Assembly: GCA_039934295.1 (NCBI GenBank)
Contig: JBDTMN010000003.1
Span: 10,625 to 74,624 of the forward strand
Source of the DNA: Candidatus Tayloriibacteriota bacterium
Lineage (GTDB): Bacteria; Patescibacteriota; Minisyncoccia; Phycocordibacterales; HO2-43-120
DNA length: 64,000 bases
Direction: 5' to 3'
Below the pieces are notes generated by a model. The model had not been told where the DNA came from. It saw nothing but the letters and a program-made list of their open reading frames with translations, and ran no database searches. This document shows positions 6,997 to 63,624 of this stretch, piece after piece (position 1 is the first letter of the stretch; the number at the start of each line of letters is the position of its first letter). A program made the position numbers and the translations under genes.

Positions 6997-7027
6997 AAAT
7001 AGTAGCAGAAAAAAAAGCTGTTAGCTA

Positions 7028-8552: not shown

Positions 8553-8688
8553 GTAAGCACGAAATTCGAATAGCGAAATTCGAAAAAATCCAAAAAATGA
8601 AAATGAAGAAATAATGAAATCCTCCTTGTTTTTTTAAATTTAGCTATTTTTCGGATTTCGGATTTCGTGCTTCGAATTTATTTAATCT

Positions 8689-9860: not shown

Positions 9861-9908
9861 GTCATTTCTTGATATACTAAAATCACTAATAACTAATTAC
9901 TAGCAACT

Positions 9909-10301
9909 ATGAGCATCTTATTTCTCATCGGGCGGATACTTTTCGGAGGTTTTTTCTTGAAAATGGGCATTAGTCACTTTAAAAATCGGACTGCGATGGC
10001 GGGATATTCAGCTTCAAAAGGAGTGCCCTCGCCTATGTTGGCTGTTGTCGGCTCGGGCGCGCTTATTTTCCTCGGGGGCTTGGGAGTCATTTTGGGAGTG
10101 TATGTCAGACTCTCACTCATTTTCATTATCCTCTTTCTCATTCCGGTCACATTCACCATGCACCGCTACTGGAGCGTCGCCGACCCTGACAGAAAAATGA
10201 TTGAGGCAATCAATTTCAACAAAAACATTGCTCTTTTGGGAGCCACTTGTATGCTTCTCATGCTTCCACTTACTCTTTGGACTTTTAGTCTCTGGCCATA
10301 G
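9909..10301 (+). CDS. DoxX-family membrane protein
   Basis: Four predicted TM helices with DoxX-like spacing. Confidence 0.55.
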   Translation: MSILFLIGRILFGGFFLKMGISHFKNRTAMAGYSASKGVPSPMLAVVGSGALIFLGGLGVILGVYVRLSLIFIILFLIPVTFTMHRYWSVADPDRKMIEAINFNKNIALLGATCMLLMLPLTLWTFSLWP

Positions 10302-10329
10302 GGCATAGGACATAATCTGCCAAAATTTT

Positions 10330-10371
10330 TTCTTTCGTCTCACTTAGCAAAATGACGCGATAGCGTCATTT
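10330..10371. terminator. Perfect 18-bp hairpin between convergent genes, followed by an ataagcg/ataagta tandem repeat tract
   Basis: cacttagcaaaatgacgc-gata-gcgtcattttgctaagtg. Confidence 0.5.
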
Positions 10372-10441
10372 TGCTAAGTGGTAGTAGATAAGCGATAAGC
10401 GAAAAGTAATAAGCGATAAGTAATAAGTGATACGGAAATTA

Positions 10442-38400: not shown

Positions 38401-41400
38401 CAACTCGTGCCGTCGATTGAGAAGCAAGGTGACGTTATTCCTCCCGCAAAAGTTGAAGTGGCATTTGAAGAAGTGGCGGTAAACGAACCCGCAAGAGCAT
38501 TTGTGCCCAAGTCTGACGAGCCGTTGACGGACAATTTTCTCCACGGTGAAGTGGTGCCAATCCCGACGTTGCCTGTGAAATTAACACGCATGACTTCGGA
38601 AGATGAAGTTGCATTATTTGCCGTGTTGAAAGTTAGAGCTCCTGAAATACCACTTGCGCCTCCTACAATTTTGGTGGCAATTATTGAAGCAAGTTCAGTT
38701 TGCACGCCGCCAGTATCAAGAAGGCCCCCAAAAGAAATCCTTACACCGCTTCCGAGCGAGGTGGAGTTGTTCGCCAAAATAAGAGGCGTTGTCGGCACTA
38801 ATGCGACAGAGTTAAATATCGAAACAGTGTCACTGACAACTCCATTTGACGACCCAAAGTTAACAGCTTTGTTTGAATTTGCAGTGTTTGGTGAAGAAAT
38901 CGAGAAGGTATCCGAGGAATCTCCCACTTGCCGTATCCCAAATGCTCCTAAACCATTAAATCCAAATTGATAGGAAGCATTCGCTGCGTTCGCTCTCTGG
39001 AACGCCATATATCCAGTAGCCCCACCGCTTGAGCCAATCCTAAGCCTCATAAGTTCTCCTTGTGCAGCGGTATCAATAGTTTTCCCGATACCCAAACTGC
39101 CATTGATATCCGTGAGGAAACTCGGGTTAGTCAAGCCAATCCCTACATTCCCTCCTCCTGTGGCAAATGTTGCGCCCCCCGCAAAAGTCGAGGTCGCCGT
39201 TGTTGAAGTGGCATTGAAATATTCTGCAACTACAGGACCGACGACGGAAAGTTTTGCGAAAGGCGAAGTGGTGCCAATGCCGACGTTGCCATTCGATAAT
39301 ATTCTCATCCTTTCTGTGTTGTTGGTTGCAAAAAGCATTGGGTTCGCCCCGTTTGTTTTAAGAATCAGATTATTGGTTGCGGCCACTTGGGCAGTATCAA
39401 AGTTACTAAGGCCAAAAATCGTGCCGGAATTTGTCGCTGACCCCTGTAAAATAGACACGCTCGCATTACCACCTCCACTAGAATTATAAAGCGATAGTGC
39501 TGAATATCCACCAGCTCCCGCGTTATACACCTCAATGCCTCCGAAACTCGTGTTGTTGGCTTTTATAACAACTGCCGTTCCTGAAAACACAGGACCTCCA
39601 TAACCGCCTACATCAAGAAGAGCTTGAGGACTCACCGTTCCAATCCCAACTCTCCCATTCTGCGCCAAAAAGATTGACGATGTCGCTGTCAACGTCGTTC
39701 CGTTCGCCGCGTAGTAAGGAAACTGTCCCGTCGTTCCGCTTCCAACCGCGCCACCCAAGCAACTCGTGCCGTCGATTGAGAAACATGATGCTCTTATGCC
39801 TCCGGCAAAAGTCGAGGTCGCCGTTGTCGAAGTGGCATTGAAATATTCTGCAACTACAGGACCGACGACAGAAAGTTTCGCGAAAGGCGAAGTGGTGCCG
39901 ATCCCGACGTTGCCATTATTAAGAATAGTGAGGAGTGCTGTTCCATCAATATTTACACGTCCAGTTGAAGATCCTTTAGCAATCTGGAATATACCAGTTC
40001 CATCATTGTCACTGTCTATTGCAATTTGCAGGTTGCTCACCGCTGAGATGTTTTGTCCTCCCGTAAATGTTTGGCCCACGCGCATTTTCGATACTCCAGT
40101 TTCTAATGATTCAAAATATGCGGACTGCCCAGACATCGAATCAACGACTATGCGTGGACCTCCCAACGAGTCGAACTGTGCTCGTATCTGACCTAGACCT
40201 GTATCCAGGGAACGGAAAACAGCAGCGGCACCGCCAGAGAGATTTGTATTGGTAAAGCGAGCAACCCCCCCCGCACCTCCGTCTGCCTCAACGTCCAACT
40301 TAAAAGTAGGAGACGTCGTTCCAATCCCCACACTCCCACTATCCAAAATAGTAAACAGCGGACTGTCGCTGGAATTCGTCGTCTGGAAATTTACTCCTGT
40401 CGTCAAACCCGCACCTTTCACGGAAAGTTTTGCCAGTGGAGAAGTAGAGCCGATACCAACATTCCCATTCTGCGCCAGAAAGATTGACGAAGTCGCGGTC
40501 AACGTCGTTCCGTTCGCCGCGTAGTAAGGAAACTGTCCCGTCGTTCCGCTTCCAACTGCGCCACCCAAACAACTCGTGCCGTCGATTGAGAAACATGAGG
40601 CTCTTATGCCTCCAGCAAAAGTTGAAGTGGCATTTGAAGAAGTTGCGGTAAATGAACCCGCAAGAGCGTTCGTGCCCAAGTCTGATGAGCCTTTTACGGA
40701 GAGCGTGCGCCATGGAGAAGTGGTCCCGATACCGACGTTGCCATCATTCCTCACTGTAAACAGATTGGTGTTTGCGCTGTTGTCCACGCGAAAGGCGTTG
40801 GTTGCCGATGTCGCTCCCGTTCCTCGAATGTGAAGTCGCGCAGAAGGAGCTATGGTGCCAAAACCATGTAATGTCGCGCCACCATTTGCGCCATCAGTAT
40901 CAAATCCATATACGTATGAGTCACTTGCTGAAATCGCAGTGTTCGATCCAAATACTGCAGATCGAGCGCCGGATACATTAAGAGCCGCTCCAAATCCTAT
41001 CGAGTCTGCGTTAGAGATAATCGAATTTCTCCCTACGACTACCGCACTTGAGCTACTTGCAGTTGCTTGTGCGCCCGACCCTATGACAACTGATCGAAAT
41101 CCTCGTGATTGAGCGGCATATCCAACAAGCACTGTATCGGATTCAGCACTAACTGCTGTCGCACCGATAACAATATTTTTAGGCTGGTCAGCTAGAGATT
41201 TTACACCATAGCCTATCAATACATTGAAATATGAGTTGCCCGTCGCCACAGTTTCAATATTATTCCCTAACAGTACTGATACTCCTAAACCTGTTCCCGT
41301 AATTATATTATTACCGATGACGAGATTATCGTCACCAGGGTGGGAGGGATAAGGTTGATTAGATATTACTATTGAATTATCAACGCTCGAAGCTTGAAGA

Positions 41401-43880
41401 CTCTGTTGACCGACAATACTTAGTTGTTGGGTCGGCGTCGTCGTCCCAATCCCCACATTCCCCGATGTCGCCAAAAAGATTGACGATGTCGCTGTCAACG
41501 TCGTGCCGTTCCCCGCGTAGTAAGGAAACTGTCCCGTCGTTCCGCTTCCAACTGCGCCACCCAAACAACTCGTGCCGTCGATTGAGAAACAAGGTGACGT
41601 TATTCCTCCCGCAAACGTCGAGGTCGCCGTTGTCGAAGTGGCATTAAAATATTCTGCAACAACTGCACCGACTACAGAAAGTTTGGCGAAAGGTGAGGTG
41701 GTGCCAATGCCAACATTGCCCGCATTGTAAAATATGTTTGAGCCGGAAGTCGTCCACTGGCTTCCAATAAAGGGCGAACCGTTCTGGAGAAATGTTCCAT
41801 TGAAGTTGAGATTTCCTCCGACGGACAGATTGCCTGCGAATGTTGAAGTGGCAGCTGTAGAGGTCGCCGTCAAGTATGCAACGGTCGGAGAAGACGAAGC
41901 TAAGAGCGCTCCTGTGCCTCCGCTTGAAAACAGCCAACCCTGTCCGAATGAAGTCGCGCCGGTGCCACCGTTAGCAATACCGAGAGTTCCGGAGACGCTA
42001 GCGAGATTCGAGGTAATGTTCAGCGATGAAGTCGCTACAAGGTCATATCCTCCGGATGCATTTCCAAGAAGAAGCTGTCCGAGTGAGGGAGGAGTAGAAG
42101 TTCCAGTGCCTCCATAGAGCACTCCGATTGATGTGGTGGCAGAGACTGTGCCGTTATTGGCTTGAAGAGGTCCGTTCAATGCATCAATGGAGAGTCCTCC
42201 GTTCATTGTTTGCAGAGCAGTGAAGGTGTTGGCCGTGTACGTCTTGGGAATAGTAGTTGAGCCGTTCACGAAAGAATTGACGAGAGTATTGGAAAAGAAA
42301 AGATTGGTGGAACCTTGGACGAGATTGTCAGAATTAATGTTGAGAGAAGAAGTTGCAACAGCTCCCACGAGACCGTTCGTGCCAAAGAGAAGTCCGTTCA
42401 ATGTGTCCAAGGTAGTATTCCCTGTTACGGCAAAGTCTCCACCGATGGTCTGGCCACCTGTCACAAGAGAGCCGAAGCGAGCAGTGCCATCTACATCAAG
42501 GTCAAATTGGGGAGTAGTGGTGCCAATGCCTACGCGGTGGTTCACTGAATCAATGAAGAGCGTATCGGTGTCGAAGGTGGAATTTCCTGCAAAGGTGGAT
42601 GTTCCGTTGATAGTGAGCTCGCTTCCGGAAAAAGTGGAGTTGGTGATGGTGGCTCCGGTGATTGTGGGATTGGTGAAGGTGCCATTGTTTGAATTTGAAT
42701 TTGAGTCAGAGCTTGAGTTTGATCGTCTGATACTGTCAAAAATTCGGTCGGTCTGGAGGGATTCGTGGAGAGCAAGACCGTAGAGTTGGTTCTGGAGATT
42801 CGTGAAAAGAGCGTCGACGTAGGATTGTGGGACACCTTGCGTAGTGTAGGTGGTGTAGTAGGTAGGGTTTTGGGTGATGTTTGTGGTAGACGGGTTGTTC
42901 TGAAAAAGAGAAAAGAGAGGAGAAGGCGTGGGGGAAGAGATGGGCGCAGGCGTGATTTGCACGGTTGGTTTCGGACAATATGCAGGTGTGGCTCCGGGCA
43001 TGAAGGGGTCGACGAAACATCGAAGTTTCTGCCACCAGTTCAACAGGGTGAGCGAGAGAGAGTCGGTAACTGTAGCGACAGAGTTTGTGACTGAAGCTAC
43101 GGAGTTCGTGATTGTAGTAATGGAGACATTGGGCTCGCTCTTTTTGGGACAATAGGAGGGAGTGGCCCAGGGAACAAAGGGGTCAATGACGCATCGAAAC
43201 TTCTGCCACCAGGATAAGCGTGCGGGTTGTGAAGCGGTGTCGGAAAGTGAGATGTCTGCGAGAGCAAGAGGGACAGATGCGAGTGAAGCGTCTGCAAGGG
43301 GAAGAGATGCGAGTGAAGAATCGGCAGGAATGTCTTCGGAGAGGACGGTGGAGTTAATTTTTTCTCTCGGATTGTCGAAAGTGCTCACGAAGCTTGCGAC
43401 AGGAGCTGTTTCGATGATTGCGAGGTGGGAGAGAGTAGTGAATTGATTTTGAAGAGAGACGTAGAGCGCGTTGAGATAGGTTGCGTAAGACTCGGTGACT
43501 TCTTCAAGATTGAATTGGGGAACGTAGATTGGGTTTTGGGTGATGGGAGGAGAGGAGAGCGAGAGAGATTGCGGGGAGAGGGCCGCGTCCGCAACGGACG
43601 CGGCATAATTACCTTCCCCATTCGCTACATGAATGCCAAGAGGAGAAGGAAGAGCGGTGAGAACACTTGTTAGGTATCCTTCTTGGAGAGAGTAAGAGAA
43701 GAGAGAAATACAACAGGTGGCTCCGAATACTAAAAAAGAAAAAATAGTTGAAAAACCCCCGGCCGTATTTTGTAATCGCCTTCGCATAAGCCATATTTTA
43801 TCATAGAAGCATTGGCAATACTTAAAAAAAAGTGGGGATAAACTAGGGTCGTCGATTCTTGCAAAAAAAATCCCGTCCAC
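35436..43880 (-). CDS. Giant (about 2800 aa) tail-fibre-like repeat surface protein with C-terminal phage S74 intramolecular-chaperone (autoproteolytic) domain; likely true start at the internal Met near 43787
   Basis: N-terminal TM/signal, then many ~70-aa repeats (NVGIGTTSPFAKLSV .. ATSTFAGGI .. CFSIDGTSCLGGAVGSGTTGQFPYYAANGTTLTATSSIFLA). The SSERFKHDISTL..LRPVSFSY segment matches the tail-spike S74 chaperone motif SDxRxK..I. A coiled coil and an S/T/P-rich tail follow. Confidence 0.8.
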   Translation of the reverse strand: MDGIFFARIDDPSLSPLFFKYCQCFYDKIWLMRRRLQNTAGGFSTIFSFLVFGATCCISLFSYSLQEGYLTSVLTALPSPLGIHVANGEGNYAASVADAALSPQSLSLSSPPITQNPIYVPQFNLEEVTESYATYLNALYVSLQNQFTTLSHLAIIETAPVASFVSTFDNPREKINSTVLSEDIPADSSLASLPLADASLASVPLALADISLSDTASQPARLSWWQKFRCVIDPFVPWATPSYCPKKSEPNVSITTITNSVASVTNSVATVTDSLSLTLLNWWQKLRCFVDPFMPGATPAYCPKPTVQITPAPISSPTPSPLFSLFQNNPSTTNITQNPTYYTTYTTQGVPQSYVDALFTNLQNQLYGLALHESLQTDRIFDSIRRSNSSSDSNSNSNNGTFTNPTITGATITNSTFSGSELTINGTSTFAGNSTFDTDTLFIDSVNHRVGIGTTTPQFDLDVDGTARFGSLVTGGQTIGGDFAVTGNTTLDTLNGLLFGTNGLVGAVATSSLNINSDNLVQGSTNLFFSNTLVNSFVNGSTTIPKTYTANTFTALQTMNGGLSIDALNGPLQANNGTVSATTSIGVLYGGTGTSTPPSLGQLLLGNASGGYDLVATSSLNITSNLASVSGTLGIANGGTGATSFGQGWLFSSGGTGALLASSSPTVAYLTATSTAATSTFAGNLSVGGNLNFNGTFLQNGSPFIGSQWTTSGSNIFYNAGNVGIGTTSPFAKLSVVGAVVAEYFNATSTTATSTFAGGITSPCFSIDGTSCLGGAVGSGTTGQFPYYAGNGTTLTATSSIFLATSGNVGIGTTTPTQQLSIVGQQSLQASSVDNSIVISNQPYPSHPGDDNLVIGNNIITGTGLGVSVLLGNNIETVATGNSYFNVLIGYGVKSLADQPKNIVIGATAVSAESDTVLVGYAAQSRGFRSVVIGSGAQATASSSSAVVVGRNSIISNADSIGFGAALNVSGARSAVFGSNTAISASDSYVYGFDTDGANGGATLHGFGTIAPSARLHIRGTGATSATNAFRVDNSANTNLFTVRNDGNVGIGTTSPWRTLSVKGSSDLGTNALAGSFTATSSNATSTFAGGIRASCFSIDGTSCLGGAVGSGTTGQFPYYAANGTTLTATSSIFLAQNGNVGIGSTSPLAKLSVKGAGLTTGVNFQTTNSSDSPLFTILDSGSVGIGTTSPTFKLDVEADGGAGGVARFTNTNLSGGAAAVFRSLDTGLGQIRAQFDSLGGPRIVVDSMSGQSAYFESLETGVSKMRVGQTFTGGQNISAVSNLQIAIDSDNDGTGIFQIAKGSSTGRVNIDGTALLTILNNGNVGIGTTSPFAKLSVVGPVVAEYFNATSTTATSTFAGGIRASCFSIDGTSCLGGAVGSGTTGQFPYYAANGTTLTATSSIFLAQNGRVGIGTVSPQALLDVGGYGGPVFSGTAVVIKANNTSFGGIEVYNAGAGGYSALSLYNSSGGGNASVSILQGSATNSGTIFGLSNFDTAQVAATNNLILKTNGANPMLFATNNTERMRILSNGNVGIGTTSPFAKLSVVGPVVAEYFNATSTTATSTFAGGATFATGGGNVGIGLTNPSFLTDINGSLGIGKTIDTAAQGELMRLRIGSSGGATGYMAFQRANAANASYQFGFNGLGAFGIRQVGDSSDTFSISSPNTANSNKAVNFGSSNGVVSDTVSIFNSVALVPTTPLILANNSTSLGSGVRISFGGLLDTGGVQTELASIIATKIVGGASGISGALTFNTANNATSSSEVMRVNFTGNVGIGTTSPWRKLSVNGSSDLGTNALAGSFTATSSNATSTFAGGITSPCFSIDGTSCLGGAVGSGTTGQIPYYSANGTTLTATSSIFLATSGNVGIGGPAGVNVLNIDTGPGSVNKGAISINNSPAVGFTSLSMLSAWSNGNGGDLLSIANATGPMMKINNLGRVGIGTSNPTQLLEISGTVSPALKITNTGVGGKSFTMFAGTSGLAMGVGANTSMFVLQDGTPQNTITTSVDGRVLFGGSIRVPNTQQYQSLNAAGNANLVMAALNSSDDYLYADSKLVVLNGGNVGIGTTSPFAKLSVKGAGLTTGINFQTTNSSNSPLFTILDSGNVGVGTTNPQTMLEIGPLSNASFDRKQLRVGNGGGGPTFTYDISRIANTGYLEFFGNQSGANGYIFSGVNGERMRIDTSGNVGIGTTTPSALLHLNNIGSTPQALIQGTGGSSVTAALAKFTVDQGSVQLGYQRNFVGFKIQTTGTMDNTGFAASSDFVIRNTGSVGIGTTTPTQKLTVNGSINMPAVNNQGFLIDGGPQLMSTGGANGKLVTSGAFAFDSGGFLVRNAAGTVSYIDINQTSAGNVLFPTGNVGIATTSPWRKLSVTGTVAFDGLTAETTSGSALCLSAQNEVQVNTGAQTCTTSSERFKHDISTLSLSALDMVNALRPVSFSYIGSNDQHVGLIAEDVVKVDPRLVFTDTDGVTPRGVRYEDLTSILTKAIQEQQGQIGSLASSTAELGEHNASLASLASTTAESLSTNVGLLNSSLSSSLQTVSSLALALDATDKKVNENFSSLDSKIADIASSTSDLQSSLLTLDSTLASKLTSDKKFITSIASSTALLIASSTADTLASSSPSFITRVASAVQELVQSAGEWVVAKVTSALGIFGRLETDEIQVGSKEKPSGITLFDEATGDPYCLKIVHGETKTSEGQCESMVTTAPEIPVETSPSDISVPSLPTTPTASSTTSLEIHVPALSPTSTSTASSTPSSDSEAPDDTSVISSSTPSTLGVPEPEPETDIPSTSPEDLEGETPLLPSVDVPPESEMSSDAVPGQ

Positions 43881-50258: not shown

Positions 50259-50682
50259 TGATATATAGTAGCAGAAAATAGTATAGCGTGTAACCTGCCT
50301 ACCCCGTTGAGCCTCTCCACTACTGGGTAACTCGTACCATCAGAAAAGATGTATAGAAGCTAAAAAATCCTCCATGAGGATTTTTTAGTAGGGTCATTTG
50401 AAAGTATTGCCCTAGTCAAAAACTAGGTGGATGCCCTCAATTGCACTAATCAGATGGCGTTTTACGGTCTTCATCATGGCGCAACAATTTGAGCTTCCTA
50501 AATATGCTTTAATCTAGATAATACTCCAAATAACCCTGCTCTCATTATAGACTCGTAAGAATGGAATGCAAGCTAAAATAGGTGTAAGGTTTTAGGTTTA
50601 AGGTGTAAGTAAATAAAATGAAAAAAATTAAAAATCCCAAGGGTAACCCTTGGGATTTTTAACCTAAAACCTAATTAATTCA

Positions 50683-50860
50683 TGCCGACATTAAGAAATG
50701 TCGGCATCTCCCAATCTTGCCCACGAGTTCTCGAGTGGGTGCAAGATTGAGGATCCCGAGCGTGGCGAGGGACAGAAATTGTGCGCCGACATTAAGAAAT
50801 GTCGGCATCCTCAATTTTTCATCCACGAATTAAAAATTCGTGGGAAAAATTGGGACCTAC
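50683..50860. repeat. Structured intergenic region: two identical hairpins gccgacatt-aagaa-atgtcggc flanking an imperfect 16-bp hairpin, then catccacgaatt-aaaa-attcgtggg
   Basis: Inverted repeats at 50683-50706 and 50786-50808; central caatcttgcccacgag/ctcgagtgggtgcaagattg. Confidence 0.5.
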
Positions 50861-51459
50861 TTAAATATCCCCTTCAAATCCGTATCGTAGAGAATACTTT
50901 CTGGAGAGAGATGGTAATCAATGACTTCATCTTTGGAAAACCAGTGTTTGATTTCGTCCTCCGCTTCTTTGACCGAACCAGATGCGTGAATGAGGTTTCT
51001 TATTGCCCGGCCGTCTCTGTCCGCCATTTCGTACGAGTCCAAAACAAAGTCCCCACGGATTGTCCCGACATCAGACGAAAGAGGTTCAGTTCCTCCGGTG
51101 ATTTTTCGGACAATTTTTACAGCGTGTGCTCCCTGCCAGACCATTGCGATGACAGGTCCAGAACTCATGTACTTTTTGAGTACGCTAATTACCTGCTCCG
51201 CAATCACTAAAGGATCTTCCGAAGGCGGTTTCAGGCCCTTATCCTTGTATCCTTTGATGGATTTCACTCCGACATTCATTTTCCATTGCGGGTCGAGATT
51301 GTAGTGCTTGTCTATATGCTCTCCCGATGGGGCAAGCATTTTAACAGCCACGAGCTTGAGTCCAATCTGCTCGTAGCGCTTAATTATTTCTCCGACCAAA
51401 GTTCTTTGGATTCCGTCGGGCTTGATGATTACTAGGGTTTTTTCGTTTTTGGGATGCAT
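50857..51459 (-). CDS. ndk: Nucleoside diphosphate kinase (long form)
   Basis: TLVIIKPDGIQRTLVGEIIKRYEQIGLKLVAVK and NIIHGSD-like active-site region. The ORF-track N-terminus (to 51495) overlaps the upstream repeat, so an internal Met start is likelier. Confidence 0.8.
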   Translation of the reverse strand: MHPKNEKTLVIIKPDGIQRTLVGEIIKRYEQIGLKLVAVKMLAPSGEHIDKHYNLDPQWKMNVGVKSIKGYKDKGLKPPSEDPLVIAEQVISVLKKYMSSGPVIAMVWQGAHAVKIVRKITGGTEPLSSDVGTIRGDFVLDSYEMADRDGRAIRNLIHASGSVKEAEDEIKHWFSKDEVIDYHLSPESILYDTDLKGIFK

Positions 51460-51550
51460 TTTTTTTATCGCTGAACTGACTCGGAACTCTAACACGGAAC
51501 TAAACTGAACTTCTGTGACTTTCCGTGTTCTTCGTCCGTGTTGTTCTGTG

Positions 51551-51866: not shown

Positions 51867-52046
51867 TTAAGCCTCTCGCGTCTCTAGTATTTTTTGCAAT
51901 CCTCCTTTCAAATCAGCAAATCGATCATAGCCTTTTTCCAATATCTCCGCATTAACTCCTCCTTGCATTTCCTTGACCCGCTCTAAAAGTGCTTTCGAAG
52001 ATTCACCGCGCATCGCCCACTCTGGTTTAATTTGTCTCTCAAACAT
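51867..52046 (-). CDS. Hypothetical small protein (59 aa, below the ORF-track cutoff)
   Basis: Translation MFERQIKPEWAMRGESSKALLERVKEMQGG.. read from the sequence. Confidence 0.25.
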   Translation of the reverse strand: MFERQIKPEWAMRGESSKALLERVKEMQGGVNAEILEKGYDRFADLKGGLQKILETREA

Positions 52047-52118: not shown

Positions 52119-52316
52119 TCATTTATCTTTTCCCCATATTGGAATGCCGAGATCTTTGCATATTTTCTTAGCTAAGAAAGTATTTATTTCGCTATGGCGA
52201 GGCAACGTTGAGGTCTTTTGATTTTTCGGATTCCAATATTATGAGTGGCGTTTTCCTTCGCGGAGTAAACGACAGCCACAGAACACAGCATAAGAAATCA
52301 AATCGCGACGTTTCAT
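52119..52316 (-). pseudogene. hicA: hicA-like mRNA-interferase toxin with an in-frame TAA stop after codon 25
   Basis: MKRRDLISYAVFCGCRLLREGKRHS* then, in frame, YWNPKNQKTSTLPRHSEINTFLAKKICKDLGIP, matching HicA (G.xH..........PRH..EI.....ILKQLGI). Confidence 0.45.
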
Positions 52317-52321: not shown

Positions 52322-52549
52322 CTATGCCGGAACTTTCACATTCAAAAGTTCGCGGGAAATACCGCGCTTATTTCCGTTGTTTCCAATCTCTCTATTGGCT
52401 ACCAACGTCAAAATCAGAGCCTCTTTCAAGTTATCATGCGCTTCCTTTCGTGTTTTGCCTTGAGTGTTAACACCCGGAATCTCCTCAATCCAAGCGCTAA
52501 CCCACTTGCCCGTTTTTTTATACGCCGCTGTAAATTTTAAATCCACCAT
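52322..52549 (-). CDS. hicB: HicB-family antitoxin
   Basis: WVSAWIEEIPGVNTQGKTRKEAHDNLKEALIL matches the HicB/UPF0150 pattern (..PG..t.G.T.EEA..n..EAl). Confidence 0.65.
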   Translation of the reverse strand: MVDLKFTAAYKKTGKWVSAWIEEIPGVNTQGKTRKEAHDNLKEALILTLVANREIGNNGNKRGISRELLNVKVPA

Positions 52550-52631: not shown

Positions 52632-55412
52632 CTACAAACTGCTCTCCGGCGGCTTTTTCTCGTACTTTCTCATAATTTCTTCCTCTACATCTGCCCTCTC
52701 TTTGCCGAACTTCAAGTATGAGAGTTCCTTCAATTTATCGACATTTTCTTTCTTGCCCGTGTCTGGCGACACGGTTTCAATATTAAAGGGCTTCACCGGC
52801 CGACCGTTGCTCAAAAGCTTGAGATAGGCGTTTCGGTTATCTATATTCATAAGGTCCTTCATTGAAAATACCGGAGAAAACTGCTTCTCCAAATATTCCG
52901 CGTCTTCCGCGCCGACACGAAATGCGGCAATGGAGCCCACGTTTCCAAAAACGGAATCTCGAATGCTCTCCTCAAGCTGGGCGATAAACTGATGCGCGAT
53001 AATGAGCCCAAGCTTGTATTTCCTCGCCTCGGAGAGAATCGTCGAAATCGAATTTGTCGTAACATTCTGAAATTCATCAATGTAGAGATAAAAAGGAGGC
53101 AGATTTTTGTGGAACGAATCAACCCGAGAGAGCGCCGCCATCAAAATTTTGCCGACCAAAATGAGCCCCAAAAGATTGGCGTTGATTTCCCCTAAACGAC
53201 CCTTTGCAAGGTTGACCAACAGAATTTTTTTCTCGTCCATTATCTGCCTGAAGTTAAAACTGGACTTTTCTTGAGCGATAATCGGCCGCATGATGTCATT
53301 CGAGAGAAACACGTCGAATTTCGAAGTGATGTACGGCACGATATTGGCGAGCGAGGCTTCCCCACCGGCTTTCTCCGCCACCTCTCTCCAAAATTGAACG
53401 ACAATCGGATTCTTGCACCGCGAGAGCTTCAATTCCCTGAAACTTTTTTGCGCCAATACTCTCGAGACATCGAGAAGGGTGTTCCCGCTCTCCGGGTCTT
53501 CCATCGAAAGCAGAACTGCGTTTCTGAAATATTGTTCGAACATAGGACCTCCCGCCGTTTTCATATCGAAGAGCTTGTTGAAGATGGAGAGCATCTCGTT
53601 CACCACAAATGTTTTTTGCTCCGGAAATCTAATGTCGTACTCGAGCATGTTTAAAGCCATCGGGCGGGCGGTGTAGCTTGGGTCAAAATAGATGATGTCC
53701 TCGTATCTCTCTTTTGGCACCATGGCTAAGACATCCTGAATGTCGGAGCCGTGTGGGTCGATGAGGCAGACCCCCTCGCCATTCGCGATATCCTGGGCAA
53801 TCATGTTTTTCAAGAGCGTCGTTTTTCCCGTACCAGTCTGGCCGATAGTATAGAAGTGCCGGAGACGGTCATCGGGTCCAATATAAATCGGAGTTTCTGT
53901 GTTCCTGTTTTTGTTTATCCCAAGAAGAATTCCGGTAGATGCGAGACCGATTGGAGCGGGAGCGCTCGCCGCTTTCGAGATTTTCAACTGTGGAGCCGAT
54001 TTGATTTCAGTCGATGGCAAATGCATCATGGTGGTAAGCTCCTTCAGACTCAACGGAATTTTTTCATCCTCGTTATAGAGTCTGAAAGAAAAATCTTTAA
54101 GCAGTTTATTCAGTTTCCCCTTTTTGAGTTCTGTAAATGCAAGCCTGTTGCCGTGGCTGTTTTCAAACTGGTTGAACGCGGACTGCACGTCGCGCAAAAT
54201 AGACAGCGCCCTCGATTCCTCTTTTGCGGAAGCGACGATACGAATGTTCGTAGCGACGATTGGACTTGCAATCTTGAGTTTGATATCTTCCACCACTAGT
54301 TCGTCTACATTTCTGAGTTCTTTCTGCTTTTCTTTCTCCTCCTTTTCCTTCTTATTGGTGAGATCTCTCGCAACCTCCTTGCCAAATTTAAAGACGTGCC
54401 CAAAGACTGTTTCAGGAAAATCTATGGCTTCTTTCACCTTAACGCCTTTCCCGATTCGCTCAAGCGCGTACTTGTATTTGGAAGTATACTCGTCCCCGAC
54501 AGGCTTAAAGACAATCTGAATTGCCGCTCCCTCGCCGTCCCGCTCGATTTTAGAAAAGCTATTCAGAACCACGTTCAGAGGATCGTGGTCAAACTGGTCA
54601 TATGTTTTGAGAGAAAAAATAGGATTCTTCGCTGACTCGGCGGACGAGCCGAGAGAGACCCCTCGACTGTCGAAAATGTTGTAGTCATCCTTTCGCTCGG
54701 AAATCCTAGCATTATGGAAAATAGAGAGAACCTGTTTTTCAAAAAGATCGCGCTTGGAGTCCGGCACCGCCGCGAAGAAAATAAATTCGTTACTGTGGTT
54801 TTCAACCGCGAGCTCAATGGTAAAGTAGTTTGGCCCCCTGTCACTTCTGTCGGACACGGAGAGCATACCTGCGTAAAATTGCTCCATTGAGGACACGAGC
54901 TCCTTGAGCGTCTTTGGATTTTCTTCCTTTGCCTTCTCCGGCAGAGTGATTTCGTAAAGAGTCATTTCGAGAGCGCGAAACAGCGGGTCTTTTTCTTTTA
55001 TTCCTTTCACTTCAAATCCGGCCTTAATATATTGAACCAAAAAACGCTCGAAATCATCTTCAAGATGGGGACTCCCGAGCTCTTCGATGATTGAAAGAGT
55101 ATTTTTAATGCCCTTTTCCTCGAGTATTCCGAGAAATTCACTCATCTTCTGGTCGTGCTCTTCGGGCGTGAGGTCAAGTACAATTTTCCCGCGCTCCTCC
55201 TTTGACATTTCAAATTGAGGGTGGAGAACCTCGCCTCCCGGAACTTGTTTATACTTTTGGACCTCTTCAGAAATGACCTGCTCCTTTGGTTTCTCGATGC
55301 CTTTTTCTTTGAGCTCTGATTCTCTTTTCGCTACTTCCCCGCGCAAAAAAGAAAGCTCCTCCTCGGGAGTGCTGAATTTCTTCTCAACGGCAGGGAAAGT
55401 AGATTCACTCAT
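52632..55412 (-). CDS. VirB4/VirD4(TraG/TraD)-like type IV secretion / conjugative-type ATPase (AAA_10-like C-terminal domain)
   Basis: Walker A TIGQTGTGKTTLL, Walker B LYIDEFQNV; about 480-aa N-terminal domain without a TM helix. Confidence 0.55.
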   Translation of the reverse strand: MSESTFPAVEKKFSTPEEELSFLRGEVAKRESELKEKGIEKPKEQVISEEVQKYKQVPGGEVLHPQFEMSKEERGKIVLDLTPEEHDQKMSEFLGILEEKGIKNTLSIIEELGSPHLEDDFERFLVQYIKAGFEVKGIKEKDPLFRALEMTLYEITLPEKAKEENPKTLKELVSSMEQFYAGMLSVSDRSDRGPNYFTIELAVENHSNEFIFFAAVPDSKRDLFEKQVLSIFHNARISERKDDYNIFDSRGVSLGSSAESAKNPIFSLKTYDQFDHDPLNVVLNSFSKIERDGEGAAIQIVFKPVGDEYTSKYKYALERIGKGVKVKEAIDFPETVFGHVFKFGKEVARDLTNKKEKEEKEKQKELRNVDELVVEDIKLKIASPIVATNIRIVASAKEESRALSILRDVQSAFNQFENSHGNRLAFTELKKGKLNKLLKDFSFRLYNEDEKIPLSLKELTTMMHLPSTEIKSAPQLKISKAASAPAPIGLASTGILLGINKNRNTETPIYIGPDDRLRHFYTIGQTGTGKTTLLKNMIAQDIANGEGVCLIDPHGSDIQDVLAMVPKERYEDIIYFDPSYTARPMALNMLEYDIRFPEQKTFVVNEMLSIFNKLFDMKTAGGPMFEQYFRNAVLLSMEDPESGNTLLDVSRVLAQKSFRELKLSRCKNPIVVQFWREVAEKAGGEASLANIVPYITSKFDVFLSNDIMRPIIAQEKSSFNFRQIMDEKKILLVNLAKGRLGEINANLLGLILVGKILMAALSRVDSFHKNLPPFYLYIDEFQNVTTNSISTILSEARKYKLGLIIAHQFIAQLEESIRDSVFGNVGSIAAFRVGAEDAEYLEKQFSPVFSMKDLMNIDNRNAYLKLLSNGRPVKPFNIETVSPDTGKKENVDKLKELSYLKFGKERADVEEEIMRKYEKKPPESSL

Positions 55413-55548
55413 GTTGACTCCATTATATAGAGTTTAGCAAAAACCTACAATTCATCGGCAAATAAAAAGTGTAGCGTTTAACTTGTAACGTAAGAGGAGC
55501 AAATTCTTTTTTCTGACGCTACACGTTACACGTTTTACGTTACACATC

Positions 55549-55833
55549 TTAAAGCGACGTCCTCACTTCTTCGAGATTGAGTTTGTCTTTTTCCCTCTTC
55601 TCAAAAGCTGTTACTTCCTCAAGATTTTTCCTAATCTGCTTCAAGGCTTCGTTGTATCTCCCGCTAATTCCCGCCATAACTTCAAGATACAACCCCGCGT
55701 ATGCAAGGTAAAAAGAAGCTTTCTCTTTTTTTGTCATTTCTCTGCCGAAAAATTCCGCCATCAAAGAAGCTGCCTCATCGTATTTTTCCTCCTCCAAGAG
55801 AGATTCAATTTTTTTTGTATCAAGCTCGTTCAT
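55549..55833 (-). CDS. Hypothetical small protein
   Basis: 94-aa ORF between the ATPase and the giant acidic protein. Confidence 0.35.
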   Translation of the reverse strand: MNELDTKKIESLLEEEKYDEAASLMAEFFGREMTKKEKASFYLAYAGLYLEVMAGISGRYNEALKQIRKNLEEVTAFEKREKDKLNLEEVRTSL

Positions 55834-55837
55834 AGAT

Positions 55838-58800
55838 TTATTCTGGCAGGCCTTTTAATATAGTAATAATAAATCCTCTTTTTGCTTTACCTTCAAGAGT
55901 GCCGGGCAAATCTTTACCCACTTTCACGAGCAAATCCCTCACAGCTTTTCTTGCTTGGTCTCCTTTTCTTGATCCGGCCTTATTTCTTTCCAAATGACTC
56001 TTAAGAGCTTTTTGCAACTCTTCGACACTATTCGCCCCAAACGAGAAGTTTTTTAAAGCTTTGGTTATTTCGCCAGAAACTTTTCCGTCGACCGCATCGT
56101 CATTTCTCTTCTGCATCTCATCTTCATTTAATCCCTCAAGGAAATCGACACCCTCTTCGTCTTCCATTCTCTTCAACTCATCAAATTTCTCTTGAGCTTT
56201 GTCAGGGTCCATACCCGGACTCATGAGTTCCGCCAATTGGCTTTGGGCTTTCTCTATCGATATTTCCGAAATCCGCTTCCAAGAATCCAGACTCTCCAAT
56301 AACGATATCCTAATCTGTTTTGTTTGGTTTTCAAATTCTGTCCTTATCTTTGCAAAATTTTCACCTTTCGCGAGAGCCGCGAGACTCGCGGTAATGTTGT
56401 CGCTCACCGTCTTCAATTTTGCAACAGTTTCATCATGCGAGGAAACCTCGTTTTGAAATTTGCCCCCGAAGCCGGGAATCCACTCGCGAAGAAACTTTTT
56501 GAATCCGACATATTTAAATTCTCCTTTTTTCTTTGTAAGCGACTCCTTTTCTCCCTGCAATAGTCCTATTTTGGCTGCAAGGTCGTCAACACTCTTATTG
56601 CCGACAAGCTGTATTATTGCGGCCTCGTTGGCTTTAATTTCGGCTTGATTCTTCTTAATAGTGTCGAGAATATCCGCAAGTCGAATAATCTCTTCTGGAC
56701 TGTTTATGGACTTCGCATCAATTTCACCCTGAATCGCCTCGAGTTCTTCCGGAGTAAACTTACCTGAAACATTTTCAAAAAAGCCCTGAAATTCGCTCTT
56801 AAGCCCGCTTATAACTTTTTCTTTCTTGGTATACACCTCGAAAACTGACCGAATCTTGTCCGCGTCATCGTTTTCAATCCACTCCTCGCTTTCCGGATAT
56901 TGAGCGAGGAAAAGTGGAAATTTGGCGTCATAATTTTGCATCTGCCGAATGCTCATCGCCAGTATTTCCGCGTTCGTAACGCGTGATAGTGTTGCTCCCC
57001 TCATCACTGCCTCGGGCTCTCGCGTTGGTTCAGTTTTCGGCGGCTCAGCTTTAGGCACAGGTTCAGTTTTCAGTGGCTCTTCGGCTTTTGACACAACTGG
57101 TTCTACCGGCTTTTCGACAGGTTTTGGTTCTTCAGGAGGTTCGGTCATCAATAGAGCCTCTCCCGCTGATGGAATTTCCTCATCGGCAGGTTTCAAAGCT
57201 TCAGCATCATTTTTTGGCTCTCCCTTTCCTTCAAGAATTCTCCATGCCTCCTCTGGTTTGAGAGAGTCAATCTCACTTTGTGTTTTACCCATTCCTATTA
57301 GTCGTTCCTGCATATCTCGAGTAATCATAAAGGGTATACCTGCGTCCGCAGAGGATACCTCTCTCTTTGCTGTGGAATTAGAAGACTCTGACGTCAACGC
57401 TTCAGGTTGAGCGGGTAGCTTTTCTTCAGAAGGTGACGCTGGCGGCTTTGGAGCTAGGCCCAGCTCTAGAATTAATTGCTCTTCTTGAGCCAATTCTTCG
57501 GGCGACTTCTGAGGCAACTTTTCTTCAGGCGGTTTTTGTTCCGCAACACCTTCCTCGCCTGGTGGCTTTAAAATGACTGGAGGGGTCACTTCGGGGACAA
57601 CAGGAGCTGTGTCTTCAGGATTTGAAAGTGGAGCAATAGGTTCTGGTTTTTTAACACTTAGTTCGAGAGGTGTCAGATATTTGGCTTTCATGTATGCCTC
57701 TTCAAGCATGGAATATAAAGTTGGATTTTCTTCAATAATCCTTGCCGCTCTTTCCATAGTTTTATGAACATAGTCGTCAATATTTTCTTTTTTTTCTTTT
57801 GAGTCAGCTACTCCTGGTATGCTTTTTATTTCTTGAAAATTTTTATTTACTTCTGCCAAATTTCCTACCTCCTGGTCAGACTCCACAAATAACCTGCGAA
57901 GATAGCCTTTAACATTCCGATCAGAAAATAGCTTTATAAATGCGTCGAACGCGGAATATCTATACACTGGAGAAGTAGTTGATTTAACCTCTTCGAGTTT
58001 ATCTTTGATACGTTCTACCGCAACACTGCCCGCAAGCTCAACATTGTTAAAGACAATAGACGGTTCTTTCTCAAGTCGTTCGTATAAGTCCTCAAAATTT
58101 CTAACAGGTTTAGAAGATTCTGTTCGAGCGGGCTCGACATTTGCGGGTTTAGATTCAGAAGCGCCTATGGGATTTGGAGGGATTTCCTCTTTTTTTGGAG
58201 GAGGCTCAGCTTTTGCCGTTGTCTCTGGCGGTAGTCCTCCGGCTATTTTTCCTCTCTTTTTTCCTCCTTTTTTCTTTTCTCCTTCCCCTTCTTCCCCTTC
58301 TTCCCCCTTGAATCTAGTTTGATTCTTCCCTTTTCTCTCTTTTTTCTCTTTTTTCTCATCTCCAGATTCTGCATCATTTTTCAACAAAGGGGCATCGGGC
58401 TTTTTCGGCGCCCCAAAAGATTCATCGGCAAGATGAGTAACAAGAGGAGCTTCGCCTCCCTTTTTTTCTTCTGTCCCTATTTTAGGTGTTGCCTTCGATA
58501 CTTTTTCTCCCAAAAGTCTAAGCGAGTCAGATAAAGTGGTTTCTTTTTTTCCTTCGACAGGAATAGCTGAATCTTCAATCACACTCTTCTTAAATATCTC
58601 GTGCAATTCATTAGATGCCTTAATCAAACCTTCGTCCCCAGATTCAACTGCGATTTTAGCTCGCTTTTCAAAGAGGGCATCTGTATTTTCAATAACTGTT
58701 TTCCTTGGGTCTCCTACTTTTTTAGAAATTTCTGCCAACCGTTTAAGTATTTTCTCGTCCACTTTTCCAATATCTTTTTTTTGCGCTAGAGAGGCTTCCT

Positions 58801-58897
58801 TCTTTTCTTCAGGAGGTTTTTTGTCTTTGAATTTCGCCTCAAGCGCGTCTAGACCTTGAATTTTTTCAAACCCCGCATTTTCTTTGTCTTCTGCCAT
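55838..58897 (-). CDS. Giant (1019 aa) acidic, Glu/Lys/Pro-rich low-complexity coiled-coil protein
   Basis: Long EK- and P-rich tracts and a KKERKGK basic stretch; no recognisable catalytic motif. Confidence 0.5.
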   Translation of the reverse strand: MAEDKENAGFEKIQGLDALEAKFKDKKPPEEKKEASLAQKKDIGKVDEKILKRLAEISKKVGDPRKTVIENTDALFEKRAKIAVESGDEGLIKASNELHEIFKKSVIEDSAIPVEGKKETTLSDSLRLLGEKVSKATPKIGTEEKKGGEAPLVTHLADESFGAPKKPDAPLLKNDAESGDEKKEKKERKGKNQTRFKGEEGEEGEGEKKKGGKKRGKIAGGLPPETTAKAEPPPKKEEIPPNPIGASESKPANVEPARTESSKPVRNFEDLYERLEKEPSIVFNNVELAGSVAVERIKDKLEEVKSTTSPVYRYSAFDAFIKLFSDRNVKGYLRRLFVESDQEVGNLAEVNKNFQEIKSIPGVADSKEKKENIDDYVHKTMERAARIIEENPTLYSMLEEAYMKAKYLTPLELSVKKPEPIAPLSNPEDTAPVVPEVTPPVILKPPGEEGVAEQKPPEEKLPQKSPEELAQEEQLILELGLAPKPPASPSEEKLPAQPEALTSESSNSTAKREVSSADAGIPFMITRDMQERLIGMGKTQSEIDSLKPEEAWRILEGKGEPKNDAEALKPADEEIPSAGEALLMTEPPEEPKPVEKPVEPVVSKAEEPLKTEPVPKAEPPKTEPTREPEAVMRGATLSRVTNAEILAMSIRQMQNYDAKFPLFLAQYPESEEWIENDDADKIRSVFEVYTKKEKVISGLKSEFQGFFENVSGKFTPEELEAIQGEIDAKSINSPEEIIRLADILDTIKKNQAEIKANEAAIIQLVGNKSVDDLAAKIGLLQGEKESLTKKKGEFKYVGFKKFLREWIPGFGGKFQNEVSSHDETVAKLKTVSDNITASLAALAKGENFAKIRTEFENQTKQIRISLLESLDSWKRISEISIEKAQSQLAELMSPGMDPDKAQEKFDELKRMEDEEGVDFLEGLNEDEMQKRNDDAVDGKVSGEITKALKNFSFGANSVEELQKALKSHLERNKAGSRKGDQARKAVRDLLVKVGKDLPGTLEGKAKRGFIITILKGLPE

Positions 58898-59001: not shown

Positions 59002-59772
59002 TTAGGGCTTTGTCAAAATTTCCGCATCGCCTTCCGTTATCAAAACTGTGTGCTCGAAGTGCGCGCTTCGGCTCCCATCGCGAGTGCGATAGGTGAAGCC
59101 GTCGTCATCGAGCATAATTTTTTCGCTCCCCATATTCACCATGGGTTCGATAGCAATCACCATGCCGGGAACTAATTCCTCTCCCTTTCCTTTTTCTCCA
59201 AAATTCGGCACATACGGGTCTTCATGCACTTTGTGTCCAACTCCGTGGCCGGAAAGCTCACGAACAATTCCAAAACCATAGGGCAGAATCGCAGATTGCA
59301 CGGCAAAACCGATGTCGCCCACATGATTGCCCCTCTTCGCGGCTTTTATACCTGCATCGAGCGACTTTTTTGTAACAGTGAGAAGTTTTTTACTCTCCTT
59401 GCCGATTTTCCCGACGGCAATAGTTACTGCCATATCCGTAATGAGTCCATTGTGCATGAGTCCCAGGTCCAAGCTCACGATGTCACCCTCTTTTAAAATT
59501 TTAGGTTTTTCGTTTGGTATTCCGTGGACAATTTCATCATTTATTGAGACGCAGAGACTCGCGGGGTAGGGACGCTTTGCACCGTAGGGCTTAAATTGTA
59601 AAAAAGCGGGAGTATCCCCGCCTTCTGCAATCAATGTGTTTGCCAAATCATTGAGCTCGTTTGTCGCAATTCCCGAAGTAACACGGTTCGCGATTTCATT
59701 CAAAATAAGTGCGTGTCTTTTCCCGCCTTCTCGGAGTATCTCGATATCTTTTTTTGTTTTGATGGAAACCAT
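59002..59772 (-). CDS. map: Methionine aminopeptidase, type I
   Basis: Metal-ligand regions DIVSLDLG, ELSGHGVGHKVHE, GMVIAIEPMV. Confidence 0.9.
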   Translation of the reverse strand: MVSIKTKKDIEILREGGKRHALILNEIANRVTSGIATNELNDLANTLIAEGGDTPAFLQFKPYGAKRPYPASLCVSINDEIVHGIPNEKPKILKEGDIVSLDLGLMHNGLITDMAVTIAVGKIGKESKKLLTVTKKSLDAGIKAAKRGNHVGDIGFAVQSAILPYGFGIVRELSGHGVGHKVHEDPYVPNFGEKGKGEELVPGMVIAIEPMVNMGSEKIMLDDDGFTYRTRDGSRSAHFEHTVLITEGDAEILTKP

Positions 59773-60506: not shown

Positions 60507-60572
60507 CTTGTAACGTGTAACGTCTGAGAAAGAGATTTCTTTTTCTTACGTTACACGTTTTGCGTTACATGT
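60507..60572. repeat. Family-1 palindromic intergenic element (TGTAACGTGTAACG .. AGAAAGA|TCTTTCT .. CGTTACACGTT..CGTTACA), copy immediately 5' of adk
   Basis: Other copies at 4749-4813 (diverged), 55469-55547, 62403-62485 and 63514-63624. Confidence 0.7.
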
Positions 60573-62402: not shown

Positions 62403-62485
62403 ATGTAACGTGTAGCATGTAACGTGTAACGTAAGAAAGAAAATTCTTTTTCTTACTTTACATGTTAAACGTTTTGCGTTACACC
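62403..62485. repeat. Family-1 palindromic element, copy 5' of rplO (occupies the position where rpmD/L30 would normally lie)
   Basis: atgtaacgtgtagcatgtaacgtgtaacgtaagaaagaaaattctttttcttactttacatgttaaacgttttgcgttacacc. Confidence 0.7.
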
Positions 62486-63513: not shown

Positions 63514-63624
63514 ACATGTAGCCTGTAACCTGTCCTAAACCCGTCCGACGTGTCGGACTAGGGTAACGTCTGAGAAAGATCTTTCTTTTTCTTACGTTAC
63601 ACGTTACACGTTTTGCGTTACATG
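63514..63624. repeat. Family-1 palindromic element (with an internal extra hairpin insertion), copy 5' of rplR
   Basis: ..gtaacgtctgagaaagatctttctttttcttacgttacacgttacacgttttgcgttacatg. Confidence 0.7.

Follow-up and report, generated by a model that had tools for sequence, protein, structure and literature searches.

Why should an ATPase of the VirB4/VirD4 type be encoded in the middle of a ribosomal-protein operon? The question is raised by the window analyzed here, a stretch of 64,000 nucleotides of contig JBDTMN010000003.1 from a Candidatus Tayloriibacteriota bacterium. Directly downstream of map, three open reading frames (ORFs) follow on the minus strand: a protein of 1019 residues, which together with its homologues is called BIG, a protein of 94 residues, likewise called SMALL, and an ATPase of 926 residues. 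A preliminary description of the sequence had located these three ORFs correctly and had taken them for an inserted block, possibly the remnant of an integrative/conjugative element (ICE). The idea of an insertion was not borne out. The ATPase is firmly supported as a vertically inherited, core chromosomal gene of Paceibacteria that has its ancestry in conjugative elements and is no ICE remnant. It is most likely a domesticated coupling-type ATPase, possibly serving a type IV secretion system (T4SS) encoded elsewhere, a link to the T4SS that we infer. The genes concerned are as follows.

52632..55412, minus strand: ATPase, 926 aa, long soluble form of the DUF8128 family (ORF, homologues, Pfam)
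55549..55833, minus strand: SMALL, acidic partner of 94 aa, pI 5.0 (ORF; 28-44% identity to relatives of ~95 aa)
55838-58897, minus strand: BIG, 1019 aa (ORF)
59002..59772, minus strand: map, methionine aminopeptidase, upstream neighbor (ORF, synteny)
50857..51495, minus strand: ndk, downstream neighbor (ORF, synteny)

The gene order on the minus strand is rplF-rplR-rpsE-rplO-secY-adk-map, followed by BIG, SMALL, and the ATPase. As the preliminary description had recognized, the operon order is conserved up to map, with adk, secY, rplO, rpsE, and the rest preceding the block, and infA-rpmJ-rpsM do not follow; a crude six-frame motif scan revealed no signatures of infA, rpmJ, or rpsM in the window. 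Three long contigs from relatives carried the same block, secY-adk-map-[ATPase]-ndk-DUF2238-betaCASP-(rplT/infC). Synteny was counted in the best 80 of at least 539 confirmed matching stretches in species-representative patescibacterial genomes, and all 80 loci bore Parcubacteria/Paceibacteria-type names. Within three genes of the ATPase, map was located upstream in 31 and ndk downstream in 35 of them. Both were nearby in 24, nine loci showed the direct order map|ATPase|ndk, and other contexts were seen in 28 of the 63 well-flanked loci. Because relatives carry the map-ATPase-ndk placement, the break in the ribosomal superoperon behind map is a feature of many of them and no peculiarity of this genome. 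In its degree of conservation, the ATPase comes close to SecY, Map, and RpsE and exceeds Adk and Ndk. Over the 28 genomes in which every marker was present, the median identity to the window protein was 54% for the ATPase, 61% for SecY, 59% for RpsE, 58% for Map, 51% for RplO, 42% for Ndk, and 37% for Adk. No homologue of Replic_Relax or of an AAA_10 VirB4 was found within ~8 kb of the ATPase in ~83 patescibacterial loci by single-sequence phmmer, a search of limited sensitivity. The called genes of the relatives' loci included no integrase, T4SS channel, or other mobile-element genes, and no membrane components of the VirB3, VirB6, or VirB8 type were present among the called neighbors of the ATPase. 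The neighbors called on the three long contigs, and likewise on three contigs with a shorter form of the ATPase (see below), were of the housekeeping kind. The block had a GC content of 0.41-0.48, the same as its flanks.

To which family does the ATPase belong? PF26449, which is DUF8128 in the gene-call tables, was assigned by precomputed annotation to P0001, a protein identical to that of the window, as well as to every listed homologue; DUF8128 was also named on the same gene product in locus L089. In agreement with this assignment, an N-terminal DUF8128 domain is followed by a P-loop domain of the type found in DUF87 proteins and type IV coupling proteins (T4CPs). The family is already catalogued, as DUF8128 in Pfam and as "DUF87 domain-containing" or "TraM recognition domain-containing" proteins at NCBI. 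Homologues numbered 2358 in a database search; the top 120 were ~920 aa long, were 63-85% identical, all carried PF26449, and came from Patescibacteria (Taylorbacteria, Paceibacteria, and "Parcubacteria group"). When the N-terminal 490 aa were searched exhaustively, 971 clusters at 50% identity were obtained. The protein can be divided into the following parts; the structural assignments were taken from an AlphaFold2 (AF2) model.

55008..55412, minus strand: N-terminal helical module, residues 1-135 (AF2; homologous to separate ORFs of 116-137 aa; without Pfam match)
53943..54995, minus strand: DUF8128 core, residues ~140-490, alpha/beta, VirB4-N-domain-like fold (AF2 and Foldseek)
52713..53942, minus strand: P-loop ATPase domain of the T4CP/VirB4/HerA type, residues ~491-900 (Pfam, NCBIfam, profile, Foldseek)
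53820..53843, minus strand: Walker A, GQTGTGKT, residues 524-531 (invariance)
53064..53090, minus strand: Walker B, YLYIDEFQN, residues 775-783 (invariance)

The motifs TIGQTGTGKTT (residues 522-532) and LYIDEFQN (residues 776-783), to which the preliminary description had drawn attention, were both invariant in 49 homologues. Gly524, Gln525, Thr526, Gly527, Gly529, Lys530, and Thr531 were unchanged in these 49 sequences and in a separate, diverse alignment of 24 sequences. Tyr775, Leu776, Asp779, Glu780, Phe781, Gln782, and Asn783 were invariant in the 49 homologues, and the Asp779-Glu780 pair of Walker B was unchanged in the diverse alignment as well. As Walker A and Walker B are both invariant, the enzyme is presumably catalytically intact and active, judging by its sequence.

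Pfam matches above cut-off were obtained for DUF87 (HerA central domain), TrwB_AAD_bind (27.6 bits against a cut-off of 20.5, across just 40 residues), and TraG-D_C (24.2 bits against 22). NCBIfam models for T4CP and VirB4 matched around the P-loop only, with scores far under their cut-offs, and the sole significant sequence-profile matches in the PDB were TrwB and DotL. Among the profiles proposed earlier as a check, TraG-D_C was confirmed and AAA_10 gave no match; the VirB4 model TIGR00929 stayed far below its cut-off. The structure of residues 1-490, for which a prediction had also been suggested, was modeled with a pLDDT of 75.7 and consisted of a helical module of ~130 aa and an alpha/beta domain. 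The 14 top-ranking Foldseek matches of this model in the PDB were without exception TrwK/VirB4 of R388 (best E=5.7e-6), so that its fold is closest to the VirB4 N-domain. TrwK was also the best match of the full-length model (~900 columns, E=2.8e-11), followed by HerA, Cagbeta (the VirD4 of H. pylori), and DotL. In the full-length model, residues ~597-712 form a helical insertion, located between the two Walker motifs, that may correspond to the all-alpha domain (AAD) of TrwB. The ATPase is a member of the hexameric-type P-loop clan of T4CP/VirB4/HerA-FtsK proteins, and its description as VirB4/VirD4-like, with TrwB_AAD_bind and TraG-D_C above cut-off and TrwK as the best fold match, was upheld. 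As judged from the models, the motor domain looks most coupling-protein-like and the overall layout VirB4-like.

How is the ATPase positioned in the cell? No N-terminal transmembrane (TM) helix was found in the window protein, and its sole hydrophobic window (residues 743-761) lies inside the ATPase core. A TM-like segment within the first 80 aa was seen in none of 120 close homologues of this long form, so the earlier statement that TM helices are lacking is valid for an N-terminal anchor. A sister subfamily of ~800 aa occurs in Parcubacteria-type genomes and is 39-46% identical to the window ATPase over residues ~146-916. In the same screen, 115 of 120 members of this short form carried an N-terminal TM helix. 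On three contigs, ORFs of 116-137 aa overlapped the start of the short-form gene and could be aligned with the long form over its initial ~130 aa.

L093: helical ORF 7666-8016, ATPase 8001-10388
L094: helical ORF 7654-8004, ATPase 8001-10439
L095: helical ORF 4831-5244, ATPase 5241-7607

The homology of a separate, overlapping ORF to residues 1-130 points to a split/fused gene pair. As the short form is TM-anchored and accompanied by the helical ORF, the long form of the window looks like a fusion in which the helical subunit has taken the place of the membrane anchor. The helical module was unrelated to either of the small proteins described below (hhalign).

Relatives outside Patescibacteria indicated where the family may have come from. 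A tblastn search against plasmids returned 591 records, 316 of them from Bacillus, at ~23% identity and over up to 78% of the length. A "DUF87" homologue of 883 aa on a Shouchella clausii plasmid was 23% identical over window residues 177-896 (pairwise E=8e-34). Its gene is directly followed by a Replic_Relax gene and by conjugation genes, one of which encodes a distinct AAA_10 VirB4. The pairing with Replic_Relax recurs on two other Bacillaceae plasmids, and adjacency to this relaxase-family gene indicates that the homologue holds the position of a coupling protein on these plasmids. The separate VirB4 of the Shouchella plasmid showed no significant similarity to the window ATPase (BLASTP E=0.03; no phmmer match). 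A designation of the Bacillaceae plasmids as pLS20-like was considered and dropped, because the T4CP of pLS20 differs in TM helices and arrangement; it has two TM helices and a different gene arrangement (PMC8557374). PHROG 5156, a family without assigned function, matched residues 149-916 (E=4e-86), and phage homologues were found in Bacillus phage G (gp156; BFVD E=1e-38) and in the Geobacillus phages D6E (gp23) and GBK2. In D6E, the gene is situated between a partition gene and an integrase. The plasmid and phage homologues were ~20-24% identical with a tblastn coverage of 62-78%, and no TM segments were present in them. Taken together, these similarities suggest that the DUF8128 ATPase shares ancestry with the ATPases of monoderm (Bacillota) conjugative plasmids.

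The closest relative of the ATPase domain outside Patescibacteria was a soluble, T4CP-like protein of 708 aa encoded at positions 6083-8209 of locus L006, on a Bradyrhizobium plasmid (NZ_CP064708.1), with 34% identity over window residues 494-883 (E=1e-54). Its neighbors are CHAT-domain and TPR proteins, with no conjugation genes, a context that points to further non-conjugative uses of the ATPase clade.

What do the two partner genes contribute? The preliminary description of BIG as rich in Glu/Lys and Pro and free of known domains was accurate for most of the chain: no Pfam match was obtained for the N-terminal ~650 aa and none above cut-off for the remainder. It missed that the C-terminal ~370 aa form a domain conserved in relatives.

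55841..56947, minus strand: conserved C-terminal domain of BIG, residues 651-1019 (alignment of relatives, HMM (hidden Markov model))
56948..58897, minus strand: lineage-specific N-terminal ~650 aa of BIG, low complexity, rich in Glu, Lys, and Pro (absent from short orthologues)

This C-terminal part matched the whole length of partner proteins of 391-492 aa in relatives with 22-32% identity, and other relatives carry different N-terminal expansions (totals of 707 and 1645 aa). SMALL was 28-44% identical to ORFs of ~95 aa that adjoin the ATPase in relatives and gave only weak, TPR-like Pfam matches below cut-off; its fold is assumed to be helical. Neither a TM segment nor a known domain was found in BIG or SMALL. 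Iterated HMM searches of the fetched loci detected the pair in 10 loci, which reduce to eight once duplicates are removed. An exact-protein look-up had supplied five contigs, of which L001, L003, and L004 count as distinct, whereas L002 and L005 repeat two of these three; the other five loci belong to the 80 that were scanned. The closest relatives, including L004 and L010, carry all three genes. BIG and SMALL always occurred together and always adjoined the ATPase, in the order BIG-SMALL-ATPase or ATPase-BIG-SMALL, in L014 outside the map/ndk context. In the window, they are separated by 4 bp and followed by a spacer of 136 bp before the ATPase. In L001, L003, and L004, BIG was 22-32% and SMALL 28-44% identical to the window proteins, and the respective ATPases (P0019, P0083, and P0072) were 67, 67, and 66% identical. 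These values show that BIG and SMALL, apparently a clade-specific pair, diverge far more rapidly than the ATPase does.

In another clade of Paceibacteria, the ATPase is followed by a protein of 738-997 aa without Pfam match and usually then by an acidic DUF5663 protein of ~100 aa. Several of the large proteins have hydrophobic segments in the middle of the chain; they are encoded at the following positions.

L054: 10736-13648
L085: 5863-9059
L087: 10748-14058
L073: 10724-13787

Five loci (L054, L073, L082, L085, and L087) had a DUF5663-type homologue of ~100 aa as the second gene after the ATPase. The intervening gene encoded the clustered 738-997-aa protein in four of these and an unclustered ORF of 846 aa in L082. 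Comparison by hhalign revealed no relationship between BIG and the 738-997-aa proteins or between SMALL and DUF5663. Thus, with two non-homologous cassettes of similar layout, the arrangement of ATPase, large variable protein, and acidic protein of ~100 aa recurs.

What, then, might the ATPase do? That it is an unlinked coupling or energizing ATPase of the patescibacterial T4SS is a tentative proposal, to which we give slightly less than an even chance. In one cultivable species of Saccharimonadia, growth on the host requires the T4SS, and the T4SS cluster of Southlakia contains no recognizable coupling protein (PMC10633639). VirD4-like T4CP homologues were reported for 2,918 of 3,035 Patescibacteria genomes, and only 148 of 5,713 such homologues were near virB4 (PMC12102498). 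A coupling role is favored because the published clusters lack a coupling protein and a relaxase while T4CP homologues are nearly ubiquitous and lie away from virB4, because the T4SS is of monoderm conjugative ancestry like the closest outside relatives of the ATPase, and because the sister subfamily is anchored in the membrane as coupling proteins are. According to this proposal, the ATPase would recruit substrates and energize, from the cytoplasm, a type IV secretion apparatus encoded elsewhere. In the sister subfamily, a TM helix of the protein itself provides the membrane tether, and the long form would dock through its fused helical module and/or through partner proteins. If the analogy with CagZ-Cagbeta and with DotL and IcmS/IcmW/LvgA holds, BIG and SMALL would be adaptors or regulators that attach to the ATPase.

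Several observations weigh against this proposal. The role of BIG and SMALL as adaptors or regulators has analogy as its sole basis. The long form is without membrane anchor, no relaxase-family or VirB4 gene turned up near the ATPase in the neighbor search, and homologues stand alone in temperate phages and on C. botulinum plasmids without obvious T4SS neighbors. The structural matches had low TM-scores (0.24-0.34), and the full-length model was of moderate confidence (pLDDT 69.8, pTM 0.43). T4CP homologues, which may not be DUF8128 proteins, occur in 2,918 genomes (96%), whereas VirB4 is present in 2,417 (80%), and the Southlakia homologue, again possibly not a DUF8128 protein, was non-essential while the T4SS genes were essential (PMC12102498).

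Some of these points favor the main rival explanation, a housekeeping translocase independent of the T4SS, in which the conjugation-derived ATPase would have been exapted for core DNA or protein translocation, e.g. chromosome handling. The authors of the genome survey themselves kept exaptation of T4CP homologues possible (PMC12102498). Such a role would explain why the ATPase travels with translation and nucleotide housekeeping genes. It agrees with a level of identity that matches SecY, Map, and RpsE and surpasses Adk and Ndk, with the stable placement in the spc-operon/ndk/RNase-J-like block, with the solubility of the long form, with the lack of relaxase and VirB4 homologues in the ~8-kb neighborhoods (as far as the limited sensitivity of that search goes), with stand-alone homologues in phages and plasmids, and, if those homologues are DUF8128 proteins, with the 96 versus 80% distribution and the reported dispensability in Southlakia (PMC12102498). 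It is, however, at odds with the membrane anchor of the sister subfamily, which resembles that of classical coupling proteins, and with the other contexts in 28 of 63 loci. No specific substrate or partner of known function links the ATPase to such a task, and in tiny genomes the neighborhood of a gene is weak evidence of its function. We regard this explanation as possible but doubtful. For the partners only, BIG might be a secreted substrate or effector, recognized through its conserved C-terminal domain and carrying its N-terminal expansions as payload, with SMALL as a chaperone or immunity-like protein. T4SS substrates commonly have C-terminal recognition domains, such as XVIPCD in Xanthomonas. 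In line with this, a variable N-terminus (0 to ~1270 extra aa) is joined to the conserved domain, BIG retains 22-32% identity where the ATPase retains ~67% (L001, L003, and L004), and the small acidic partner is tightly coupled by the 4-bp gap. Most members, however, consist of the conserved domain alone and would be without payload, and the expansions are of low complexity (Glu, Lys, Pro) and without enzymatic domains, which makes the effector function improbable.

A HerA-type anti-phage defense module, composed of the ATPase and effector partners, was suggested by weak PADLOC matches (mad8, E=3e-12, and HerA models), by the likeness in fold to HerA of Sir2/DUF4297 defense complexes, and by the position of a phage homologue in a lysogeny module. 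The PADLOC matches covered just the generic P-loop domain, which led to the rejection of this reading, and the partners contained no nuclease, Sir2, DUF4297, NurA, or other effector domain. Defense systems are patchy and evolve fast, while the ATPase is widespread, syntenic, and slowly evolving; a defense function is thus very unlikely. The remnant of an ICE or other mobile element inserted after map, the origin originally proposed, can hardly be maintained at all. It would accommodate the nearest non-patescibacterial relatives of the ATPase on plasmids and phages and the ribosomal-protein operon that does not continue with infA-rpmJ-rpsM. Yet the same map-ndk position is occupied in many species at housekeeping-level identity, relaxase and VirB4 homologues were not detected nearby, neither integrase nor T4SS channel genes were called in the relatives' loci, GC content does not depart from that of the flanks, and the hairpin repeat in the block is a general intergenic element (see below). 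The preliminary description had also named what would speak against it: relatives with the same three genes as core genes and an ATPase of a non-T4SS family. The synteny of the ATPase and the trio in the closest relatives were indeed found, but the family stays in the T4SS ATPase clan, so that the other option of the preliminary description, a novel translocation module, may still apply.

The region between the ATPase and ndk contained four small ORFs.

52322-52549, minus strand: hicB (weak UPF0150/HicB-like match below cut-off)
52119-52316, minus strand: hicA pseudogene with an in-frame TAA (HicA_toxin E=1e-7 with the stop masked)
51867-52046, downstream of the ATPase: ORF of 59 aa
51551..51841, minus strand: DUF5663-like acidic protein of 96 aa, possibly a further accessory (weak DUF5663 match; DUF5663 on record for the product)

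They are followed by ndk, a DUF2238 gene, and a gene for a beta-CASP RNase, beyond which infC-rpmI-rplT are encoded on the opposite strand. The hicB/broken-hicA pair, apparently a small toxin-antitoxin cassette inserted between the ATPase and ndk, is the only recent insertion in the block. A hicB-like ORF also occurs near the ATPase in locus L021. The 59-aa ORF was no remnant of the 738-997-aa proteins of the other clade. A promoter and terminator scan did not exceed shuffled expectation.

The preliminary description had further noted a family-1 element at the start of the ATPase gene. This element is real. It is an imperfect palindrome of ~75 nt with stems of GTAACGT heptads around a central AGAAAAAGAA..TCTTTCT, and 10 seed matches were counted in the window versus 0.18 expected. 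Five copies were present in the window, all intergenic.

55476..55545, minus strand: copy in the SMALL/ATPase gap
4785-4800: copy near the start of a cysS-like ORF (4722-6323)
60508-60554: copy in the secY/adk gap
62403-62432: copy in the rpsE/rplO gap
63563-63609: copy in the rplF/rplR gap

As copies recur in four other intergenic gaps, the element does not mark a boundary of the ATPase block. No Rfam family matched it at the gathering threshold. The hairpins could act in RNA processing or as attenuators, or could represent a REP-like element.

Elsewhere in the window, giant ORFs of 2504 and 2814 aa were located at 13303-20817 and 35436-43880 (both minus strand), in regions with strong local excursions of GC skew and GC content. 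On the minus strand, a tRNA-Leu(CAG) gene (881-965) overlaps an ORF with a LAGLIDADG domain (919-1617) at the 3' end of the latter; this ORF may be a homing-endonuclease gene that adjoins or has invaded the tRNA-Leu locus. Downstream of ndk, a strong terminator-like hairpin with a 19-bp stem was found at 50625-50731 (minus strand); the anomalous tRNA with a two-base anticodon that ARAGORN called there is probably false.

How much of this is new? Orphan T4CP homologues of Patescibacteria, thousands of them, were noted in 2025 but not characterized (PMC12102498), and a full-text literature search found no papers on "DUF8128." The VirB4-like N-domain, the map-ndk placement, the level of conservation, the fused and TM-anchored designs, and the partner cassettes were not found in the searchable literature. 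The T4SS clusters so far described for Patescibacteria are devoid of both a coupling protein and a relaxase, which raises the question of what the system moves and how it picks its substrates. On this question, the locus offers a concrete candidate family with a VirB4-like N-domain and a T4CP-type motor, two designs of membrane attachment, housekeeping-level conservation, and clade-specific partners. The DUF8128 ATPase also illustrates cleanly how a gene of mobile elements has become part of the chromosomal core. More speculatively, a conjugation-derived motor may have been recruited permanently to a housekeeping role that is near-universal in Paceibacteria, in two interchangeable designs with rapidly diversifying helical partners, as the substrate gate of the T4SS or as a T4SS-independent translocation machine.

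The window ATPase was also compared with known systems. With the T4CPs (VirD4/TrwB/TraG/TraD), it shares a P-loop domain with both Walker motifs, TrwB_AAD_bind and TraG-D_C matches above cut-off, Cagbeta and DotL among the fold matches, and full-length homologues that adjoin a relaxase-family gene on Bacillaceae plasmids; the helical insertion seen in the model may be a further common feature. Unlike T4CPs, it has no N-terminal TM domain, it possesses an extra N-terminal region of ~490 aa that is missing in classical T4CPs, it scores far below the cut-offs of the NCBIfam T4CP models (46 bits versus 366, and similar), and its gene is a chromosomal core gene conserved like SecY. A two-domain architecture of ~800-900 aa, as in VirB4 (TrwK of R388), is suggested by the models: TrwK ranked first among the structural matches of the N-terminal 490 aa as well as of the full-length protein, at low TM-scores. 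However, the VirB4 profiles (TIGR00929, AAA_10, and CagE_TrbE_VirB) do not recognize the protein; TIGR00929 reached 17.8 bits against a cut-off of 643 (E=7.5e-4), there was no AAA_10 match at E<0.1, and VirB3, VirB6, and VirB8 neighbors are lacking. The published patescibacterial VirB4 is located near dnaA/dnaN (PMC12102498).

PHROG 5156, phage G gp156, D6E gp23, GBK2, and the DUF87 proteins of Bacillota plasmids are homologous over both domains and likewise soluble, but they reside on mobile elements and lack the first ~150-170 aa. HerA and FtsK belong to the same ATPase superfamily, as reflected in the DUF87 match above cut-off and in HerA among the fold matches. The better VirB4 match suggests that the N-terminal region of the window ATPase differs from theirs, and no NurA, Sir2, or DUF4297 partner, FtsK gamma domain, or TM segments were found. 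BIG and SMALL show no sequence similarity to any family searched; their binding to the ATPase is proposed by analogy with the accessory proteins of T4CPs. In CagZ-Cagbeta and in DotL with IcmS/IcmW/LvgA/DotM/DotN, as in the window, small acidic proteins are encoded with a coupling ATPase, and the CagZ-Cagbeta complex (8dol) was itself among the fold matches of the window ATPase.

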